Shown here: in pieces, positions 19,663-27,752 of the stretch | Layout: each line of letters opens with the position of its first letter | Numbering within the stretch: the first letter of the stretch is position 1 | From: Candidatus Staskawiczbacteria bacterium RIFOXYD1_FULL_32_13 | GTDB taxonomy: Bacteria; Patescibacteriota; Minisyncoccia; Minisyncoccales; Staskawiczbacteraceae | Assembly: GCA_001820485.1 (NCBI GenBank) | Contig: MHPU01000020.1 | Location: 11,589 to 50,320 of the forward strand | Reading direction: 5' to 3' | DNA length: 38,732 nucleotides | Position numbers and translations under genes: made by a program | The notes under the pieces: model-generated | Seen by the model: the letters and a program-made list of their open reading frames with translations, nothing else | What the model was told of the DNA's origin: nothing | The model's database searches: none

Positions 19663-20775
19663 TTATTTAAATTTTAGTTTTGATCCCAATATATAACCTG
19701 ATAAAGGATTTTTACCTCCTCTAATATCAAAATGTAAATGACAACCAGTTGATATTCCAGCTCCTGCCATTCCTTTACCACCACCAACTAAGGCAATTCT
19801 ATCTCCTGTTTTTACAACATCTCCTGGTTTTACAAAAGCTGTCATAAAATGTCCATAATAAGAAACTACTCCGTTTGAATGCAATATTGTAATGTAATTT
19901 CCTCCACCTAAATTCCAGCCATAAGCCACTCTTTGGACTGTGCCATAAGCTGCAGCATAAAATGGGGTCCCGCATTTATTTGCAATATCAATTGCATTAT
20001 AAAAATGTAATTTTTGACTTATTGTACCCTCTACAGGAATTATAAAGAAGTTATTTGCAATTGGAGCTTGAGTAATTGAAGGGACTGGTTTTTGTGGCAT
20101 TACTCCACCAGGAACAATCAAAATATCTCCAAGAAATATATCATTTTCATTATTAAAACTATTAAAAGAAACTATATCATCAACTTTTACTTTATAAGTT
20201 TTAGCTATATCTGAAATTGTGTCCCCTGATTTTACAATATGCAAAAGCCCAGAAACTGGTAAAATAACAATTGTTTGGCCAACTTTTAATGTAGAATTTT
20301 TTGTTAAATTATTTGACCACAATATAGTATTTATTGATATATTAAAATTTTGTGCAATAGACTCAAAAGTGTCTCCAGGGAGGACTGTATATTCAACAAT
20401 TTCTTTTGAATTTTGCAAATCTTCACCAAAAATAGATCCTAAAACCTGAGTACTTAAAACTCTATAAGAAGCAATTCCATAAACACTGTTATCTTCAATT
20501 ATTTTTAAATCTGGAACTTCTAAAGCCAAAATATTTTTAGAATTTAAAAATAAGCTATCTTTTGTTACTCCCTCTGACCCTTCTAAAAAAGAATTTAAAA
20601 AAACACTCTTATTTTTTAAGGTGTCATTAAAATCTGAAAAATTTTCAAATCCAAAACAAACAAATGCAAACAAAAGAAAAGAAATCATTCCAAAATAAAA
20701 CAAAGGATTCTTTAAAACCCTTTTTGGTCTGTTTACTTTTTGTTTATTTTTTTTGGAAAAATCAAGTGTCCCCAT
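19663..20775 (-). CDS. Two-LysM M23 family peptidase
   Basis: YTVLPGDTFESIAQNF, HIVKSGDTISDIAKTY, YYGH, STGCHLHF. Start set to the ATG at 20775. Confidence 0.9.
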   Translation of the reverse strand: MGTLDFSKKNKQKVNRPKRVLKNPLFYFGMISFLLFAFVCFGFENFSDFNDTLKNKSVFLNSFLEGSEGVTKDSLFLNSKNILALEVPDLKIIEDNSVYGIASYRVLSTQVLGSIFGEDLQNSKEIVEYTVLPGDTFESIAQNFNISINTILWSNNLTKNSTLKVGQTIVILPVSGLLHIVKSGDTISDIAKTYKVKVDDIVSFNSFNNENDIFLGDILIVPGGVMPQKPVPSITQAPIANNFFIIPVEGTISQKLHFYNAIDIANKCGTPFYAAAYGTVQRVAYGWNLGGGNYITILHSNGVVSYYGHFMTAFVKPGDVVKTGDRIALVGGGKGMAGAGISTGCHLHFDIRGGKNPLSGYILGSKLKFK

Positions 20776-20848
20776 TAAAACTAGTGTATCATTTAGAGGC
20801 GAGCTAGTCAAGTTTTTTATCCACACTTTTATATGGTATAATAACATC

Positions 20849-21811
20849 ATGAATTTAACCTCGCCTATAGCAATCAAAGAAATTTTAGAAAAATACCAGA
20901 TTAAACCATCAAAAAGTTTAGGTCAAAACTTTTTAATTGATAAAAATATTTTAGATAAAATTATTCTGGCAGGTAATTTATCAAAACAAGATGTTGTTTT
21001 GGAGGTAGGGCCTGGTCTTGGAGCTCTTACGCAAGAACTAGCAAAATCAGCTGGCAAAGTAATTGCTATAGAAAAAGACCACGATATGATAAATATTCTT
21101 TCTGAAACTTTAAAAGAATTTGAAAATATAGAAATTATAGAAGGTGACGCATTGGAAATTCTTATTTCATCGTCATTGCGAGGAAGCTCGCAAGCTGACG
21201 AAGCAATCCAGAATGAGTGCACAGACTCTAGATTGCCACGCTCGTCGCCTGCAGAGCAGGCGAACTTCACTCGCAATGACAAAACTGATATTTTTCAAAA
21301 TTATAAAGTTGTTGCCAACATTCCTTATTATTTAACTTCTCACTTAATCCGAACATTTTTAGAATGTAAAAATCCACCAGAAGAAATTATTTTACTTATT
21401 CAAAAAGAAGTAGCTTTAAGAATTTGCGCTAAACCTCCAGAAATGAGTTTGCTTGCTGTATCAGTTCAATTTTATGCAAAAGTAAAAATTATTTCTTATG
21501 TTTCAAAAAATTGTTTTCTACCAGCCCCTAAAGTTGATTCAGCAATAATTAAAATAACTCCACATATAATAGAAGGGGATAAAGAATTAAATAATTTTTC
21601 AGGGGAAGAGTTTTTCAAAATTGTAAAAGCTGGATTTTCTCATCCAAGAAAACAGCTAGCGAATAATTTTATAACGTCTCTTAAATTAAATAGAAAGCAA
21701 GTTGAGGAGTGGCTTTTAAAAAATAATATTAAACCAAACCAAAGAGCAGAAACACTATCCATAAAAGATTGGAGAAACTTAGTAGAAAGTTTTCCACAGT
21801 TTGACAGCTAA
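20849..21811 (+). CDS. rsmA: 16S rRNA dimethyltransferase RsmA/KsgA with a repeat-derived insertion
   Basis: SLGQNFLID, LEVGPGLG, VANIPYY, PAPKVDS, RAETLS. Start set to the ATG at 20849. Confidence 0.95.
   Translation: MNLTSPIAIKEILEKYQIKPSKSLGQNFLIDKNILDKIILAGNLSKQDVVLEVGPGLGALTQELAKSAGKVIAIEKDHDMINILSETLKEFENIEIIEGDALEILISSSLRGSSQADEAIQNECTDSRLPRSSPAEQANFTRNDKTDIFQNYKVVANIPYYLTSHLIRTFLECKNPPEEIILLIQKEVALRICAKPPEMSLLAVSVQFYAKVKIISYVSKNCFLPAPKVDSAIIKITPHIIEGDKELNNFSGEEFFKIVKAGFSHPRKQLANNFITSLKLNRKQVEEWLLKNNIKPNQRAETLSIKDWRNLVESFPQFDS
21172..21280. repeat. Palindromic element, family B, inside rsmA, with a nested hairpin
   Basis: GTCATTGCGAG...CTCGCAATGAC; inner TCGCCTGC-AGA-GCAGGCGA. Confidence 0.9.
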
Positions 21812-21847
21812 CACTAATAACTTGTTTTATGATATACTTTAAATATG

Positions 21848-21893
21848 AATATACCGCATATTTGCCACGACCGTAGAATTTTTGCGGTATAAA
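21848..21893 (+). repeat. 46-bp direct repeat, copy 1
   Basis: AATATACCGCATATTTGCCACGACCGTAGAATTTTTGCGGTATAAA, identical to 22502-22547. Confidence 0.95.
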
Positions 21894-21928
21894 ATTTTAT
21901 TTTTTTACTTTCTAGATACTTTTAAAAT

Positions 21929-22477
21929 ATGTCTTATTCTACTAATCAAAAAATATTATTCACATTATTGGGTTTGATTGCTACTGGTTTTTGTCACACG
22001 CCAGGGCAACAAAGGAGAGCTTTCCGAGAAATTGGGAAAATTTGGGAGAAAAATACAAACAACAAAACATTAGACAATCAAATAGATAATCTTTATCGCT
22101 CCAAATTAGTAAAACGCAAAATAAACAAAGATGGCACAATCACTTTAACTCTTACAGATAAAGGTAAGATGAAGGCTTTAACCTACAAATTTGAAGAGAT
22201 GAAGCTATCTAAGAAGAAAGACTGGGACGGCAAATGGCACATAGTGTTTTTTGATATTCCAGAAAAACAAAGGGTAGCCAGAGATATATTTAGAGATAAA
22301 ATTAAAAAAATTGGGTTTTATGAATTGCAACATAGTGTATTTGCTTTTCCTTATGAATGTGAGAATGAAATAGAATATATAATCGAAACGTATAAAATCT
22401 CAAAATGGGTAAGGTTTGGTATTTTAGAGAAGATTGACAACGATATTTATTTGAGAAATTTTTTTGGAATTAAATAA
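21929..22477 (+). CDS. PaaX-like protein (winged-helix-like region plus Cas2-like domain)
   Basis: LTLTDKGK wing, then WDGKWHIVFFDIPEKQRVARDIFR...IGFYELQHSVF. Confidence 0.8.
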   Translation: MSYSTNQKILFTLLGLIATGFCHTPGQQRRAFREIGKIWEKNTNNKTLDNQIDNLYRSKLVKRKINKDGTITLTLTDKGKMKALTYKFEEMKLSKKKDWDGKWHIVFFDIPEKQRVARDIFRDKIKKIGFYELQHSVFAFPYECENEIEYIIETYKISKWVRFGILEKIDNDIYLRNFFGIK

Positions 22478-22501
22478 GCAAAAAATAATATCTATAATAT
22501 A

Positions 22502-22547
22502 AATATACCGCATATTTGCCACGACCGTAGAATTTTTGCGGTATAAA
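22502..22547 (+). repeat. 46-bp direct repeat, copy 2
   Basis: Identical to 21848-21893; begins 24 nt after the stop codon. Confidence 0.95.
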
Positions 22548-22650
22548 TAAATTATAAAAAGTGTGATATTGATATAAATAAAGACATTAAAAAAATGACC
22601 ATTTAAAAACATATAAAATAGTTATTCACATGTGAGCTTGTTCTTTTTAT

Positions 22651-22679
22651 TTGCTTGATTTTTTAATTAGATGTATAAT
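22651..22679 (+). promoter_or_regulatory. Sigma70-like promoter, preceded by TTATTCACA (22622-22630)
   Basis: TTGCTT-17 nt-TATAAT upstream of the 22713 ORF. Confidence 0.5.
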
Positions 22680-22712
22680 TATTTAATATTTTAATTCTCT
22701 AAAAATATATTT

Positions 22713-24698
22713 ATGGCTTTGCAAATCAAAAGTTTGTTTTCTCAAATCTCTAAGAACATTTTAAATATTTTTAAAGGCAAAAGATTTTTTGTAATAATTC
22801 TTTTGTTTTTTGTTACACTTGGCCTTATTATGCCTCAAACTTCCCTTGCTGTTGCATGTGGAACTGATAATAAATATCTTGAATTTTTTTGCGATTTGGC
22901 GAATCCTATTACTGGCCCATTAGCTATGTTAACAGGAGAAGATCCAATGACTGGCTTTTTGGCAAAAGGTTTTATAATCGCATTTGGAACAATTGCAATA
23001 ACAATTTCTTCTATATTATCAAATTGGGCTGCAGGAATTTTGCTGTGGGTGATGTCTACAGGAATAAATATTAGTTATACAGGATTTGATAATCCTGTTG
23101 TTGCTGCGGGCTGGCCAATAATGAGAGATTTAGCAAATATGTTTGTGGTTTTGGGTTTTGTAATTATTGGTCTTGCAACAATTTTAAGACTTAAAAACTA
23201 TGAAGCACAAAAACTTTTACCAAGATTAATTGTTGTAGCTCTTTTAATAAACTTTTCTTTAGTAATTTGTGGATTTTTTATTGATGCTTCAAATATTGCT
23301 ATCGGTACTCTTTTTAAGGGGGGTGGTTATCTTGAAAGATCAACATTATCACAAACGGGTAAAGACTTAAGTACAATTTGGAGTTCAAATTTTTTTAATA
23401 AATCTCCAGCAACTTTTTTAGCTATAGTCACGGGAATGGTTATAAAAAATTATATTTCTTTATTTATATTTATAGCTTATGCTTTTTTATTTTTATTAAG
23501 ATATATGATGCTTTGGATTTTAGTTACCTTTTCTCCACTAGCTTTTGTGTGTGCTGTTTTTCCGATGTCTCAACAATTATATAAAAAATGGCGAGATAAT
23601 TTTATACAATGGTGTATAATAGGAATGCCTGCAGGGTTCTTTCTATTTGTTGCAGATAAATTAACCTCAAGACTTTGGAATACAACAACAGTCTCTTCTG
23701 TAGCAAGTGCATCAATGGTAAGCAATGCAGCGGAAATAATTATTGCAATTATTCCTGCTCTTTTTTTGGGAGCAGGATTCTTATTTTCATTACAAACATC
23801 AGCAATGGGCGCAGGTATAATTACCTCTCAAGCTAAAAAAGCATGGGGTGCGAGCAATGCCTTCTTTAGTAAAAACGCCAAAGCCGGAGCCAAACTTGCA
23901 GGTGGCAAATTAGCAAACATCAGCGGTGCAAGCGGGCTTTATAATAGAGCAGGTGACAGCTTAACAAAACTTGGAGAAAGAACCGGCTTCTTAAAAATGG
24001 GGGCAGCGGCAAAAAGAAAAGCAAAACAAATGGAGGGATATGGCACAGAAATCGATTCTATGGAATCAGAAGATTTGGGCAAATCATACAAAAGAAATCC
24101 TCGGACAGAAGAAGATCGTAAAAATAATGCAAAAATTACAGAAATCCTATCTAGAAGAAAGAAACTCAAAGAAATTGGCAATGCAGACGAAATTGCTACA
24201 GCTCTTGAAAATACAGACCAATACTATGGCGGTGACAAGGCCAAAAATATAAGAAAGGAGGCAGAAAAAGCATCACCAATTTTGAAAACAAAAAATAAAG
24301 ATGCATTGGTAAAAGCTAAGGCAAGATTACCAGTTGGCGCAAGTCAAGCTGAAATAGAAAGAGAAGTATTAAGAGAAGCACACTCAGAAATGGGAGTTTC
24401 AGATATGAGAAATTTAGACGCATCTCAATTTAATTTAAGTTTTATACAAGATACTAATAACAAAACATTTGAGAGAGCTGCCCTAGAATTTTCAACAGAT
24501 CAAAAACAAAAAGCTAAAAGTTTGGTTAATGACATTAAAACAGAAATTGCAAGAATACTCGCGATTACAATACCTATTACAGATCCTGGCTTTATAGCTG
24601 CTGCTCGAAGCGCCTATTCATTATTGCCTACTGGTAATCCAAAAAGACAAATGGTATATGATTTAAATGAAAAATTAAAAATAGTTGATAAATTTTAA
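22713..24698 (+). CDS. VirB6/TrbL-like polytopic membrane protein
   Basis: GWPIMRDLAN, ALLINFSLVI, LLRYMMLWILVTFSPLAFV...KKW, then a Gly/Ala-rich segment and charged tail; near prgI and virB4. Confidence 0.75.
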   Translation: MALQIKSLFSQISKNILNIFKGKRFFVIILLFFVTLGLIMPQTSLAVACGTDNKYLEFFCDLANPITGPLAMLTGEDPMTGFLAKGFIIAFGTIAITISSILSNWAAGILLWVMSTGINISYTGFDNPVVAAGWPIMRDLANMFVVLGFVIIGLATILRLKNYEAQKLLPRLIVVALLINFSLVICGFFIDASNIAIGTLFKGGGYLERSTLSQTGKDLSTIWSSNFFNKSPATFLAIVTGMVIKNYISLFIFIAYAFLFLLRYMMLWILVTFSPLAFVCAVFPMSQQLYKKWRDNFIQWCIIGMPAGFFLFVADKLTSRLWNTTTVSSVASASMVSNAAEIIIAIIPALFLGAGFLFSLQTSAMGAGIITSQAKKAWGASNAFFSKNAKAGAKLAGGKLANISGASGLYNRAGDSLTKLGERTGFLKMGAAAKRKAKQMEGYGTEIDSMESEDLGKSYKRNPRTEEDRKNNAKITEILSRRKKLKEIGNADEIATALENTDQYYGGDKAKNIRKEAEKASPILKTKNKDALVKAKARLPVGASQAEIEREVLREAHSEMGVSDMRNLDASQFNLSFIQDTNNKTFERAALEFSTDQKQKAKSLVNDIKTEIARILAITIPITDPGFIAAARSAYSLLPTGNPKRQMVYDLNEKLKIVDKF

Positions 24699-24699
24699 T

Positions 24700-25275
24700 A
24701 TGATTACAAACACAAATAATCTTAATAAAAGAGAGGAAATTTATTTTTCTAATATTGATATTTCTAAAGATATCTCTGATATTTTAAAAAAAGTTGAGAT
24801 ACAAGAAGATCCCATAGATTCACTTTTTATGAATAATACAAAAGAAGAATCAAAAATATATTTTGTTTTAAACGCTACAAAAGATTTTGTAAAAAAAAAT
24901 ATGACCGAATATAATTTTATTAATTTATTAGAAAATAAACTTGTTATAAATAACCAAAAAGCAAAAATGATGTTTGACGATTTGAAAAAAAATCTGATAC
25001 CTTTTGCAGAAATAATAAAAATAAGTGATAATACTGAAGATATCAACACTACTAAGATGCCAAAGCTTAAACAACCTATAGAAATTGAAAAAATGTTACC
25101 AACTCAACAATATCCAGATAAAGTAAAAAAAGTTGATTTAGATGTTAAAACCTATAAAGATGACGATTTAAAATTGAAAAAAAATTTACAAAAGATTAAA
25201 AAAGAAAGATTGCCAAAAACAGAAATAAATAATAAATCTAATAAATCGGACACATACAGGGAATCTATAGAATAA
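24700..25275 (+). CDS. Hypothetical protein ending DTYRESIE
   Basis: ATG 1 nt after the upstream stop; host-like composition. Confidence 0.7.
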   Translation: MITNTNNLNKREEIYFSNIDISKDISDILKKVEIQEDPIDSLFMNNTKEESKIYFVLNATKDFVKKNMTEYNFINLLENKLVINNQKAKMMFDDLKKNLIPFAEIIKISDNTEDINTTKMPKLKQPIEIEKMLPTQQYPDKVKKVDLDVKTYKDDDLKLKKNLQKIKKERLPKTEINNKSNKSDTYRESIE

Positions 25276-25287
25276 TAAAAAAAAACA

Positions 25288-25314
25288 GGTGGTCGTACAA
25301 CATACGGCCACCTT
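25288..25314. terminator. Bidirectional terminator
   Basis: GGTGGTCGTA/TACGGCCACC stem with A- and T-tracts on either side. Confidence 0.65.
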
Positions 25315-25319
25315 TTAAA

Positions 25320-26462
25320 TCATGGCGATTCTAAATCGCCTAAATCACTCCCCGTCCCATTTTTTTCTCCTGTGTTCTTGCGACGACCACCGCTATTCTG
25401 ACCTCCGAGAAGAACGCCGGCACCTCCACCACCACCACCGATGACCACAGTGCCTGCGTTTTCAAGACCGTGAACCTCTTGATATTGTCCTCCAGCCTTT
25501 AGATAAGCTCTCCTTGCCAGCTCACGTTGTTTCTCATCAATCTGCTCTTGAGAAGCCTTGGGGTGGACTTTTTTCCAAGCTTCCAGTGCTTGGTTTGTAT
25601 CATCAAGCAATGTGGCACTCGCCTCTGCCTGATGCTTTGCTGCCTTGGCTTTTTGCTCCGCCTCGTACGGAGCAAGAGTGATATTTCTCCAATTATCTGG
25701 AGGATCAATACTTGCCAAGTCAATAGACGAAATATCCAATCCACAGAGCTTGAGGATCTTTTCAATAGACGAAAGACCATCGTCGCCACGCGCGTTCATT
25801 GCCTCATTCAAAAGCGTGTTGACTACATCCTTCATCCTTCGTCTTGCCGCTTCCTCTGTTTCTTCGGTTGCCTCGGTGCTTCCGACAGCTTCCGCGTAAG
25901 AAACCTCGTCTAAGGCATTTCGTAGCCTTGGCATTACTTCCATATTCATAGAAGCATACCAATCGCTTTCGCTAAAGAACGAAACGCGTGGCCTTCTCAT
26001 GCGGGCTTTAACTATCACGAGCCCGTGCATATGCAGGCCGTTTTTATCCTCCACGTCTTTGAATGGAACGGCGTAAGGATAACGCGTTGACTTGAAGCTA
26101 TTAACACCTTCGTCTTCATGAACTTTTGCTTCGACGGCTCCATCCTCCTTTACGACCGCCTTCAAAAAGCTCATCTTGCGAGAGTGCAGAGTGTGTATTC
26201 CTGGAATACCAATCACGTGGAATCCCGGCTTGATAATCCTGTGAAACTTCCCTGCTTTCAAAACAATCCTAAACCATCCTTGCTCAACGAAAGTAAAGAT
26301 AATGTTGTGATTTGCAAGATAAATCACAGTTGGGTATGCCATAGCCAATGCAACGAGACTGCCCATGCCAAACGGCCACCACGGACCAAACAACAAGGCG
26401 ATGGGCAGAACGACAAACAAAACGATTGCCAAACCGACAACAACTTGCATGCGATTACTCAT
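25320..26462 (-). CDS. SPFH/band-7 domain membrane protein, GC-richer cassette
   Basis: Two TM helices; GKFHRIIKPGFH; GLDISSIDLASIDPP; AEQKAKAAKHQAEA. AAGGAG before the ATG at 26462. Confidence 0.75.
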   Translation of the reverse strand: MSNRMQVVVGLAIVLFVVLPIALLFGPWWPFGMGSLVALAMAYPTVIYLANHNIIFTFVEQGWFRIVLKAGKFHRIIKPGFHVIGIPGIHTLHSRKMSFLKAVVKEDGAVEAKVHEDEGVNSFKSTRYPYAVPFKDVEDKNGLHMHGLVIVKARMRRPRVSFFSESDWYASMNMEVMPRLRNALDEVSYAEAVGSTEATEETEEAARRRMKDVVNTLLNEAMNARGDDGLSSIEKILKLCGLDISSIDLASIDPPDNWRNITLAPYEAEQKAKAAKHQAEASATLLDDTNQALEAWKKVHPKASQEQIDEKQRELARRAYLKAGGQYQEVHGLENAGTVVIGGGGGGAGVLLGGQNSGGRRKNTGEKNGTGSDLGDLESP

Positions 26463-26569
26463 TCTGAACTCCTTCGCGAAAGCGACTAAACGGTGATTCA
26501 ACACATATCCAATTGTCAAGGAACATCCTTAACTTTTTTGCCTGAAAAACACTTTCAAGCTACAATTTA

Positions 26570-26598
26570 ATTATAGCATAAAACAATATCCCTGTCAA
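26570..26598 (-). promoter_or_regulatory. Consensus sigma70 promoter for the SPFH gene
   Basis: TTGACA-17 nt (ending TGC)-TATAAT. Confidence 0.8.
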
Positions 26599-26656
26599 GG
26601 TATTTACATATAACTTAAAAGGAATTATAGTAAAATTAAGCTAAATAAATAATCAT

Positions 26657-26944
26657 ATGAAAAATATTTTATTAGAATTTAATCTACCAATGTCCATTTT
26701 AAAAGAGGGTAAAAAATTTATTGCCTACACACCGGTGCTAGATTTGTCTACTTCGGGGAATAATTATGAACAAGCTAAAAATCGATTTACTGAAATTGTG
26801 GAAATTTTCTTTGAAGAAATAATCAAAAAAAATACTATAGAAGAAGTCTTAACTGATTTGGGGTGGAAAAAAAATCAAACTAAATGGACCCCACCAATTG
26901 TTATCTCAAACGAATTACAAAACATTAAATTAGCTTGCCGATAA
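26657..26944 (+). CDS. hicB: HicB-like antitoxin (short)
   Basis: KEGKKFIAYTPVLDLSTSGNNYEQAKNRFTE; abuts hicA (TAAATG). Confidence 0.75.
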   Translation: MKNILLEFNLPMSILKEGKKFIAYTPVLDLSTSGNNYEQAKNRFTEIVEIFFEEIIKKNTIEEVLTDLGWKKNQTKWTPPIVISNELQNIKLACR

Positions 26945-27175
26945 ATGCCAAGAATAATCCCTATAAACTGGAAAAGATTTGAAAAATTTGTCCTTTTTGT
27001 GGGATGTGTTTTTGAGAGAGAAAAGGGCGATCACAGAATTTACAGCCGAAAAGATTTACCAAGACCCATTGTTTTCCCAAGAGATAATGAATTACCAATT
27101 TTTATTATAAGGAATAATCTTAGAGTGCTTAAAATTAGCCCAGAAGAATATATTGATATTTTAAAAAGAATATAA
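26945..27175 (+). CDS. hicA: HicA-like mRNA interferase toxin
   Basis: GCVFEREKGDHRIYSR...PIVFP...IIRNNLR. Confidence 0.85.
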   Translation: MPRIIPINWKRFEKFVLFVGCVFEREKGDHRIYSRKDLPRPIVFPRDNELPIFIIRNNLRVLKISPEEYIDILKRI

Positions 27176-27301: not shown

Positions 27302-27752
27302 AAATTACAAATTACAAGCACCAAATTACAAACAAATTCTAATGACTGAAAATAAAAATTCAAAACCATATGATCTTGAAGAACGAACTGCAAAATTTGC
27401 AGAAAACTGCAGAGATTTTATTAAAGGTTTGTCTAAAACAATTTCAAATATAGAATATTCTAAACAACTTATTAGATCCTCTGGCTCACAAGCAGCAAAT
27501 TATATTGAAGCCAATGAAGCACTAAGTAAAAAAGATTTTATTCATAGAATTAGAATTTGTAGAAAAGAAACAAAAGAAAGTTGTTTATGGTTAAGATTAT
27601 CTGAAACTAATAATATTGATATTTCAGAAAAACAAAAACAATATTTACAAAATGAAGCAATAGAAATTAGAAAAATCTTTACATCAATATTAAATAAAAG
27701 TGTTTTGTAATTTATTATATTTTGTGATTTGTTATTTGTAATTTGTAATTTT
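27302..27752 (+). mobile_element. Putative cassette: heptamer arm, four-helix-bundle gene, inverted heptamer arm
   Basis: Arms 27302-27333 and 27721-27752 match the empty elements at 10482-10551 and 8295-8365. Mobility is inferred only. Confidence 0.55.
27342..27710 (+). CDS. Four helix bundle protein (23S rRNA IVP / Avd-like family)
   Basis: YDLEERTAKFA, KQLIRSSGSQAANYIEANEALSKKDFIHRIRICRKETKESCLWL. Confidence 0.92.
   Translation: MTENKNSKPYDLEERTAKFAENCRDFIKGLSKTISNIEYSKQLIRSSGSQAANYIEANEALSKKDFIHRIRICRKETKESCLWLRLSETNNIDISEKQKQYLQNEAIEIRKIFTSILNKSVL

Follow-up and report, generated by a model that had tools for sequence, protein, structure and literature searches.

One small gene in a 38,732-nt stretch of contig MHPU01000020.1 (positions 11,589 to 50,320; hereafter the window) of the ultra-small groundwater bacterium Candidatus Staskawiczbacteria bacterium RIFOXYD1_FULL_32_13 is bracketed by two copies of a long palindromic repeat, and lies between rsmA/ksgA and a gene for a putatively TrbL/VirB6-like membrane protein (Table 1). 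We refer to the gene as mini-PaaX, and to the gene together with its two repeats as the cassette. The assembly comprises 44 contigs and 1,028,434 bases and is 93% complete; the window is AT-rich, with 25–41% GC in 1-kb windows. A first-pass annotation had described two identical 46-mers with 9-bp arms enclosing a single gene, and both a repeat search and the list of open reading frames (ORFs) agree with that description, mini-PaaX being the only plus-strand ORF of at least 60 amino acids between the copies.

Table 1. Features at and around the cassette (window coordinates)
Feature	Position	Strand	Description
rsmA/ksgA	20753..21811	+	Upstream neighbour, outside the cassette; RrnaAD, E 1.1e-55; in-frame GC-rich repeat insert
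Extended -10-like TGaTATACT	21831..21838	+	Candidate promoter; 11 nt before the left arm of copy 1
Copy 1 of the 46-mer	21848..21893	.	Dyad 21850-21891; 36 nt past the rsmA stop; ends 35 nt before the mini-PaaX ATG
Right arm edge GGTATAAAAT with -10-like TATAAA/TAAAAT	21886..21897	+	Alternative candidate promoter, overlapping the site
mini-PaaX	21929..22477	+	182 aa; predicted winged helix-turn-helix (residues 1-96) and Cas2-fold, PaaX_M (residues 100-182); no PaaX_C
TATAAT hexamer	22493-22498	+	5 nt upstream of copy 2
Copy 2 of the 46-mer	22502..22547	.	Dyad 22504-22545; same orientation as copy 1; starts 24 nt past the mini-PaaX stop codon and ends 165 nt before the TrbL/VirB6-like ATG (22713)
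TATAAT with weak TTGCTT 17 nt upstream	22674-22679 (TATAAT)	+	Between copy 2 and the TrbL/VirB6-like ATG
TrbL/VirB6-like gene (putative)	22713..24698	+	Outside the cassette; 661 aa, multi-pass membrane protein; TrbL_3/VirB6-like by Atlas look-alikes only

The repeat search returned two 52-nt direct copies (21842-21893 and 22496-22547, 654 nt from start to start) with one mismatch at the sixth base, so that 46 nt are identical between them. The interior of the 46-mer is a 9-24-9 palindrome, in which the arms TATACCGCA and TGCGGTATA enclose a 24-nt spacer with ACGACCGT at its middle, forming a 42-bp dyad. When up to three mismatches are allowed, the 42-mer occurs at two places in the window and at none in 100 shuffles, and the same two places are the only ones in the whole assembly, i.e. 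the palindrome of this cassette has no orphan. The arms with any 24-nt spacer (up to one mismatch) were found in none of 60 other genomes of the same family. All four junctions between repeat and flank are covered by Logan contigs from two other public runs, and one contig of run X12, an independent assembly, corresponds to 21848-22531 with 0 differences. The duplication is therefore real, and chance or an assembly artefact as the origin of the repeat is ruled out by the shuffles, the genome-wide search and the independent contigs. In run X10, the depth over copy 1 (window 21840-22023) is 31 versus ~7 nearby, and two contigs share the repeat and about 20 nt beyond it before diverging at 21912 and 21914, as if palindrome and right flank also existed in another context in that community.

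The proposal that the encoded protein contains the Cas2-like central domain of PaaX is borne out by both profile and structure comparisons. Pfam assigns PaaX_M (PF20803) to residues 97-165 with an E-value of 3.9e-21 (75.4 bits against a cut-off of 24), and CRISPR_Cas2 with 1.8e-4 (22.1 bits), which is below its cut-off of 23.8. An AlphaFold2 model based on 36 homologs (predicted local distance difference test, pLDDT, of 83) displays three helices and a beta wing in residues 1-96 and a beta-alpha-beta-beta-alpha-beta unit in residues 100-182. With Foldseek, the top match is E. coli PaaX (8a39; E 4.8e-4 over 190 columns), followed by Rv0674 (3kfw), Cas2 proteins and VapD; a single-sequence search of the PDB with the Cas2-like half returned noise only. 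Using VIA-align, residues 1-96 superimpose on the winged-helix DNA binders F93, PadR, MarR, HxlR/QsrR and AspA (Z 7.8-9.5, DNA complexes included), residues 100-182 on Cas2 (Z 8-9, root-mean-square deviation 2.5 Å over 79-80 residues), and residues 1-180 on PaaX 15-187 (Z 9.5). As judged by the model, mini-PaaX is a winged helix joined to a Cas2-fold domain, without the ligand domain of PaaX: the chain ends at residue 182, immediately after the Cas2 fold, where the effector-binding domain of PaaX would start. Like Cas2 and VapD, it retains an aspartate at the end of the first strand of this fold; the residue, Asp109, occupies the Cas2 metal-binding position and is invariant in 36 of 36 sequences. 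The aspartate at that position is catalytic in Cas2. Unlike in Cas2, the fold is fused to a winged helix, and neither a Cas1 partner nor any CRISPR context was found in the genome (93% complete); at the locus there is no array, only two repeats 654 bp apart.

PaaX, the phenylacetyl-CoA-responsive repressor of E. coli and Pseudomonas (8a39; PF07848, PF20803, PF08223), is the best structural match over both domains, and mini-PaaX would work like its DNA-binding two thirds. According to a review (PMC9493321), PaaX combines a winged helix with a dimerisation motif and a C-terminal domain, binds TGATTC(N27)GAATCA in E. coli, and represses its own Px promoter by steric hindrance. The arms of that site, as given there, are short, inverted, far apart and spaced 33 bp centre to centre; those of the palindrome studied here have the same spacing (9 + 24 = 33 bp). 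Mini-PaaX nevertheless fails two features that define the PaaX family, the effector domain and the paa context. It has 182 residues versus 305 in chain 8a39 and lacks the C-terminal effector domain PaaX_C (PF08223); since PaaX_C was not found anywhere in the genome (93% complete) either, no ligand switch is evident. Cas1 was likewise not found in the genome. Neither paa nor cas genes are present among the 23 window ORFs scanned, as the first-pass annotation had noted, and paa genes are also missing from 99 ORFs around the paralogs and orphan sites described below.

The bracketed layout is not peculiar to this locus. The genome, of only about 1 Mb, holds ten mini-PaaX paralogs, all with PaaX_M, and 10 of 10 are flanked upstream and downstream by palindromes of their own. 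Each of these consists of outer arms that differ between paralogs, an A/T-rich stretch and a shared centre, which is of the CGRYCG type (ACG-RY-CGT or GCG-RY-CGC) in seven paralogs; in the other three the centres are of another type (GCTATAGC/GCCATAGC, GCGTACGC) or not palindromic. In one paralog (C8:47052) the two copies are exact reverse complements, and in another the centre alone is flipped. Homologs with E-values up to 1e-20 were found in 22 of 41 related genomes, with 0 to 13 matches per genome, and their loci are bracketed by the same kind of palindrome, in some cases without a mismatch over 54 bp. When species-representative genomes were scanned, at least 602 stretches were obtained, of which at least 596 are confirmed mini-PaaX loci; among the matches listed, the closest named loci belong to Staskawiczbacteria and other metagenome-assembled genomes of Parcubacteria. 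Site-gene-site units of this kind apparently form a large, undescribed family: no description of mini-PaaX or of the palindrome-bracketed layout, including for PaaX itself, emerged from a search of the openly accessible literature. A metagenome scan with a strict arms-plus-centre pattern gave no matches. A looser arms pattern gave at least 120, and was dropped as chance after none of 80 loci examined proved to contain a mini-PaaX gene; 2 of the 80 had CGRYCG in the spacer, by chance, on high-GC contigs.

To quantify the layout, we kept 79 loci of other Patescibacteria from the scan of species-representative genomes and scored palindromes against the 95th percentile of 316 random windows. An upstream palindrome was present in 66 loci, a downstream one in 64, and both in 55; one locus with a run of N was removed, leaving 54 cognate pairs of upstream and downstream copies. 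In 46 of these 54, the two members resemble each other more closely than do 95% of unrelated pairs (mean identity 71% vs 40%). As to orientation, 25 pairs are direct repeats, 15 are inverted and 14 score as ties, and the centres of the two copies are a median of 647 nt apart. The question whether each homolog has its own flanking repeat is thereby answered affirmatively for all paralogs and for most of the sampled loci. Read outward from the dyad, the half-site consensus is T-C-G-Y-R-n-R-W-W-T-W-T-K, and beyond about position 12 the sequence becomes private to each locus. The perfect identity of the present pair is not matched over 42 nt by any of the 54 other pairs, only two of which reach 40; the cassette is therefore young or recently homogenised, in line with the suggestion that such identity implies recent duplication or selection.

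Two further properties of the sites bear on how they may be read. First, the two halves of the centre ACG-RY-CGT are separated by only 2 nt and cannot form a hairpin; a symmetric sequence of this build is intelligible only as double-stranded DNA that a two-fold symmetric protein recognises. Second, private sites appear to change with a particular part of the protein. Three homologs that are ~80% identical (the present gene, the paralog at C8:51475 and a gene of congener G001) each have a different palindrome, and the columns invariant among them amount to 20 of 54 in residues 1-54 versus 108 of 128 in residues 55-182, the differences clustering most tightly where the third helix begins, in residues 38-54. 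The sites of one sister family (family A, ACCTTGT...ACAAGGT) number 8, 5, 2 and 0 in four congeners, and the congener with none also has no family-A gene, its best match being 40% identical. An orphan family-A site after the rpsO-NYN genes occupies the orthologous place in three genomes, with the arms kept and the spacer varying.

The upstream copies differ from the downstream ones in their relation to promoter-like motifs. In the 79-locus sample, -10-like hexamers peak 30-35 nt past the centre of the upstream copies (27 matches among 65 copies), whereas downstream copies show no such peak. The centre of the upstream palindrome lies at a median of 47 nt from the start codon, and in 17 of 57 loci a gap of 6-7 nt separates the start codon from the end of the closest -10-like hexamer. 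In two paralogs of the present genome, the right arm holds TTGACA, followed after 17 nt by TAAAAT and after a further 6 nt by ATG, which, as predicted from these motifs, puts the operator on the -35 element of a leaderless promoter. At the cassette itself there are two promoter candidates (Table 1): for the first, TGaTATACT, the closest paralog has TATAAT at the aligned position, and the TATAAA of the second also occurs in copy 2 (22542-22547); a bound dimer would cover or abut either candidate. The positions reported earlier for TATACT (21833-21838) and TATAAT (22493-22498), and the gap of 165 nt between copy 2 and the TrbL/VirB6-like ATG, are as stated.

Based on these observations, we propose that mini-PaaX is probably a PaaX-like dimer that occupies both of its private sites: from the upstream site it would repress the gene that encodes it, and the downstream site would close the unit. 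A two-fold symmetric dimer, held together by the Cas2-fold domain, which is the dimerisation module in PaaX, would occupy the 42-bp dyad. Its private 9-bp outer arms would be read by the rapidly evolving portion of the winged helix (residues ~38-54), and the conserved part of the protein would lie over the family-wide centre RCGRYCGY. With the upstream copy abutting or overlapping the promoter, binding there would shut off transcription of the gene, as PaaX does at Px. The downstream copy may mark the 3' boundary of the unit, being transcribed as a hairpin at the end of the mRNA, serving as a second bound site, or both; a dimer bound there could act as a roadblock or form a loop that isolates the cassette from its neighbours. 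The autoregulator with twin operators suggested in the first-pass annotation accordingly survives in its autoregulatory half, for which the fold, the arm geometry, the palindromes proper to each paralog and the nearness of upstream copies to -10 hexamers argue.

Several results weigh against this proposal. The N-terminal PaaX family PaaX_N (PF07848) has no match to mini-PaaX at E-values up to 0.01, although residues 1-96 are modelled as a winged helix and align with the N-terminal part of 8a39. Sigma-70-like sites in 21500-22900 number 8, versus 9.2 ± 2.8 in shuffles, and since such matches are no commoner than in shuffled sequence the hexamers alone carry little weight; the centre of the upstream palindrome of this cassette is moreover 58 nt from the ATG, not ~40. 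Over 82 loci, covariation between residues and bases is not significant (best mutual information 0.66, against permutation maxima with a mean of 0.62 and values up to 0.68), and the distances between proteins and between sites correlate weakly (Spearman 0.22-0.31 for inner and ~0.04 for outer positions). A plain repressor-operator model also leaves unexplained that 18 of 28 loci with a convergent next gene possess a downstream palindrome. It likewise does not account for the positions of the orphan sites of the sister families, which were collected by blastn-short with 20 flanking sites and from palindromes of the same build found in earlier genome scans. Of 24 such sites, 11 lie in tandem gaps, 7 in convergent gaps, none in divergent gaps, 4 within genes and 2 at contig ends; convergent gaps thus hold 7 of 18 intergenic orphans with 11% of the intergenic bases, while tandem and divergent gaps make up 71% and 18%. 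Finally, the tsaE gene of this genome has an 18-aa in-frame insert that is a family-G palindrome and is absent from nine orthologs, and tsaE of congener G003 carries a different palindrome, of family I, in frame at another position; the origin of these is equally outside the model.

The orphans at 3' ends and in frame, left unexplained in this way, leave some room for a role resembling that of repetitive extragenic palindromes (REPs) and their REP-associated tyrosine transposases (RAYTs). The palindromes would then be small mobile DNA that mini-PaaX, by means of a Cas2-fold nuclease domain and a site-specific winged helix, cuts, copies or maintains, the gene sitting between two of them as a RAYT sits between two REPs; binding and autorepression would still hold, with the layout serving propagation. 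Mini-PaaX and its palindromes would constitute a REP/RAYT-like replicator of the candidate phyla radiation, in which a nuclease of winged helix and Cas2 fold replaces the Y1 transposase, solo palindromes are scattered to gene 3' ends and in frame into tsaE, and the flanked gene is inherited vertically as a self-repressing single copy. The layout is identical to that of the proteobacterial REPtrons, which PMC2817692 describes as 'always flanked by two REPs', with congruent trees of protein and repeat, i.e. co-divergence, and with extra copies that are extragenic, mostly at gene 3' ends and sometimes clustered. In the present genome, the enrichment of orphans in convergent gaps with none in divergent ones and the in-frame palindromes of tsaE agree with such a system, as do four places where sites of unrelated families lie 49-66 bp apart (C18:33306/33362, C26:1002/1051, C29:29046/29104 and C42:28488/28554), the families G, H, I and J, which have sites and no cognate gene in the assembly, the 0 to 13 gene matches per genome in the 41 relatives, and the invariance of Asp109. 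The four paired places recall the REP clusters known as bacterial interspersed mosaic elements (BIMEs).

Against mobility of this kind, sister families have 0-5 orphans and 2-9 copies in total rather than tens to hundreds, every site forms a complete dyad around a conserved centre, and the cassette's own palindrome, with its two sites in the genome, has no dispersed copy. There are no near-identical cassettes in the genome, the closest pair being 81% identical in protein. The orphan conserved in place in three genomes is therefore old and not hopping. Palindromes in the RNase HII and MiaB-like genes, considered as further intragenic cases, are not clean lineage-specific insertions: the linker is variable there, and congeners share an SDR/DDR motif at that point. 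Mini-PaaX is not a Y1/HUH transposase (Pfam gives PaaX_M and Cas2 only), and no Cas2 fold is known to catalyse strand transfer. Two genes with Y1_Tnp, of the IS200/IS605 or RAYT type, are present in the genome at C14:2990-3274 and C34:33611-33868 (L171, L172); it is possible that they are the movers of one or both palindrome classes, in place of mini-PaaX. Considered together, a REP/RAYT-like replicator appears unlikely.

Two observations were made alongside the orphan survey. TsaE (C27:6603-7274; L047:2104-2772, L062) contains three in-frame inserts relative to nine orthologs, namely the palindrome of mini-PaaX type, a GC-rich element and a third insert of 20 aa. At C42:27882-28385 (L054:2383-2883), a 167-aa gene without a Pfam match lies between a family-B and a family-C palindrome.

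The genomic slot of the cassette was compared across congeners. Orthologs of the 661-aa TrbL-like protein are present in all three congeners (G001, G002 and G003), and the slot between rsmA and this gene holds a gene resembling that for a 23S-rRNA-intervening-sequence protein in G003, two small ORFs in G001 and only ~120 nt in G002, with neither mini-PaaX nor a palindrome in any of the three. The slot is variable, and this lineage has gained the cassette there as an accessory unit. The slot gene of G003 (L059 3124-3489) resembles a gene of the 23S-rRNA-intervening-sequence type, for a four-helix protein, that lies inside the secretion-like locus of the present window (27342-27710).

Gain and loss of this kind could reflect a recombination module, another of the options raised at first, in which the palindromes are symmetric crossover sites and the gene leaves with one site as a 654-bp circle and enters a solo site; the exchange would be carried out by a host recombinase or by homologous recombination, and mini-PaaX would assist or confer specificity. 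Symmetric crossover sites of this sort are known from Xer/dif systems and from the pdif modules of Acinetobacter plasmids. One contig of run X14 (277 nt, depth ~3) joins 21847 to 22502 and comprises 61 unique upstream letters, one repeat and the downstream flank, which is what the excised single-site form, with its 654-bp deletion, would look like. Solo sites exist, the mixed orientation of the copies (25/15/14) is as expected of a symmetric crossover region, and the identity of the present pair would be expected if both copies stem from one event and then diverge. The joining contig is found in one of four runs, however, and at a depth of ~3 a k-mer assembler can make such a join by accident. 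The contigs showed no junction of a 654-bp circle, although they could not have displayed one. Moreover, no empty slot with a single repeat was found downstream of rsmA in any of the three congeners, the arms are private to each paralog and could hardly be read by one host recombinase, and the in-frame palindrome of tsaE is again unexplained. The variable slot and the low-depth join favour an accessory unit, and we regard a recombination module, comparable to those of Xer/dif type (pdif, IMEX), as quite unlikely.

The mismatches within the palindromes are pertinent to a third option, an RNA-level system in which transcribed hairpins are bound or cleaved by a Cas2-like RNase that controls the 3' ends or stability of its own mRNA and of others. 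On the sense strand, G:T exceeds A:C in the downstream copies by 71 to 29 (binomial 3e-5), compared with 48 to 53 in the upstream copies (Fisher 9e-4); counted per locus, the ratios are 30 to 12 (p 0.008) and 16 to 21. Such a G.U-tolerant bias fits a transcribed 3' hairpin. In addition, on either strand the predicted folding of 59-61-nt stretches that include the 46-mer is better than that of shuffled sequence (z -2.5 to -3.6), orphans occur mainly at gene 3' ends, the fold matches the Cas2 and VapD RNases, and the aspartate at the Cas2 position is invariant. Neither the upstream copies nor the tandem orphans (11 to 10) share the bias, though, the orientation of the palindrome to the gene is not fixed, and self-pairing is impossible for the conserved centre. 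The downstream copies are not followed by a U-tract, a terminator scan of the locus gave 0 sites, and Rfam and tRNA scans of the locus found nothing. The bias itself could arise from transcription-linked mutation, and would agree equally with a hairpin that is passive at the 3' boundary while the protein binds DNA, as in the self-repressing unit proposed above. An RNA-level role of this kind seems improbable to us.

The twin-operator suggestion had a second half, with copy 1 acting on the regulator and copy 2 on the TrbL/VirB6-like gene and the type IV secretion-like genes that follow. The next gene after copy 2 does run in the same direction as mini-PaaX, the TATAAA edge of copy 1 recurs in copy 2, and in the sample a downstream palindrome is present at 41 of 43 loci with a co-oriented next gene (crude ORF calls), against the 18 of 28 with a convergent one. 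Yet the three congeners have the TrbL-like gene without the cassette or an upstream palindrome, and mini-PaaX is therefore no conserved regulator of the secretion-like locus. Copy 2 ends 165 nt before the ATG, with the TATAAT at 22674-22679 nearer to it; downstream copies family-wide have no -10 peak, and no third copy occurs in the secretion locus or in the genome. The claim that the regulator also governs the secretion locus is thus not upheld, and we consider twin operators very improbable.

Patescibacteria have tiny genomes with few recognisable regulators, and here ten genes of one family occur in 1 Mb. If the units are orthogonal repressor-operator pairs, as in the reading that we favour, they would add up to a major, so far undescribed tier of gene regulation over a large share of the bacterial tree, and would offer naturally occurring DNA-binding parts that are small, ligand-free and insulated from one another, with private sites of ~40 bp. 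If the protein instead moves palindromes, the Cas2 fold would underlie a mobile DNA system of a new kind and have a site-specific DNA-mobilising role outside CRISPR, which would bear on the origin of the CRISPR adaptation proteins. Whichever reading holds, the database labels 'Cas2' and 'PaaX' for mini-PaaX genes mislead.

Of the two neighbours, the 661-aa protein has no Pfam match even at E-values up to 5, and its earlier designation as VirB6-like is retained as a lead: in the ESM Atlas, TrbL_3 occurs in 28 of the 30 nearest named clusters, comprising 25-33% of the members in the three best. The secretion-like character of the locus behind it is indicated by Pfam matches to PrgI, a TraG/VirB4-like ATPase and a pilin-like protein. 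In rsmA, the in-frame GC-rich insert (window 21150-21300) contains SRLPRSSPAEQANFTRNDK, and the TsaE and RNase HII proteins of this genome include nearly identical peptides. Contigs of other runs pile up over the region (depth 32-73 vs ~7) with many variants, and the insert resembles a REP-like, GC-rich element that is dispersed and translated in frame. Further downstream, a minus-strand SPFH/Band-7 gene (25320-26519) breaks the otherwise plus-strand row of secretion-like genes, and the GC content over it (window 25001-27000) rises to 37-42%.

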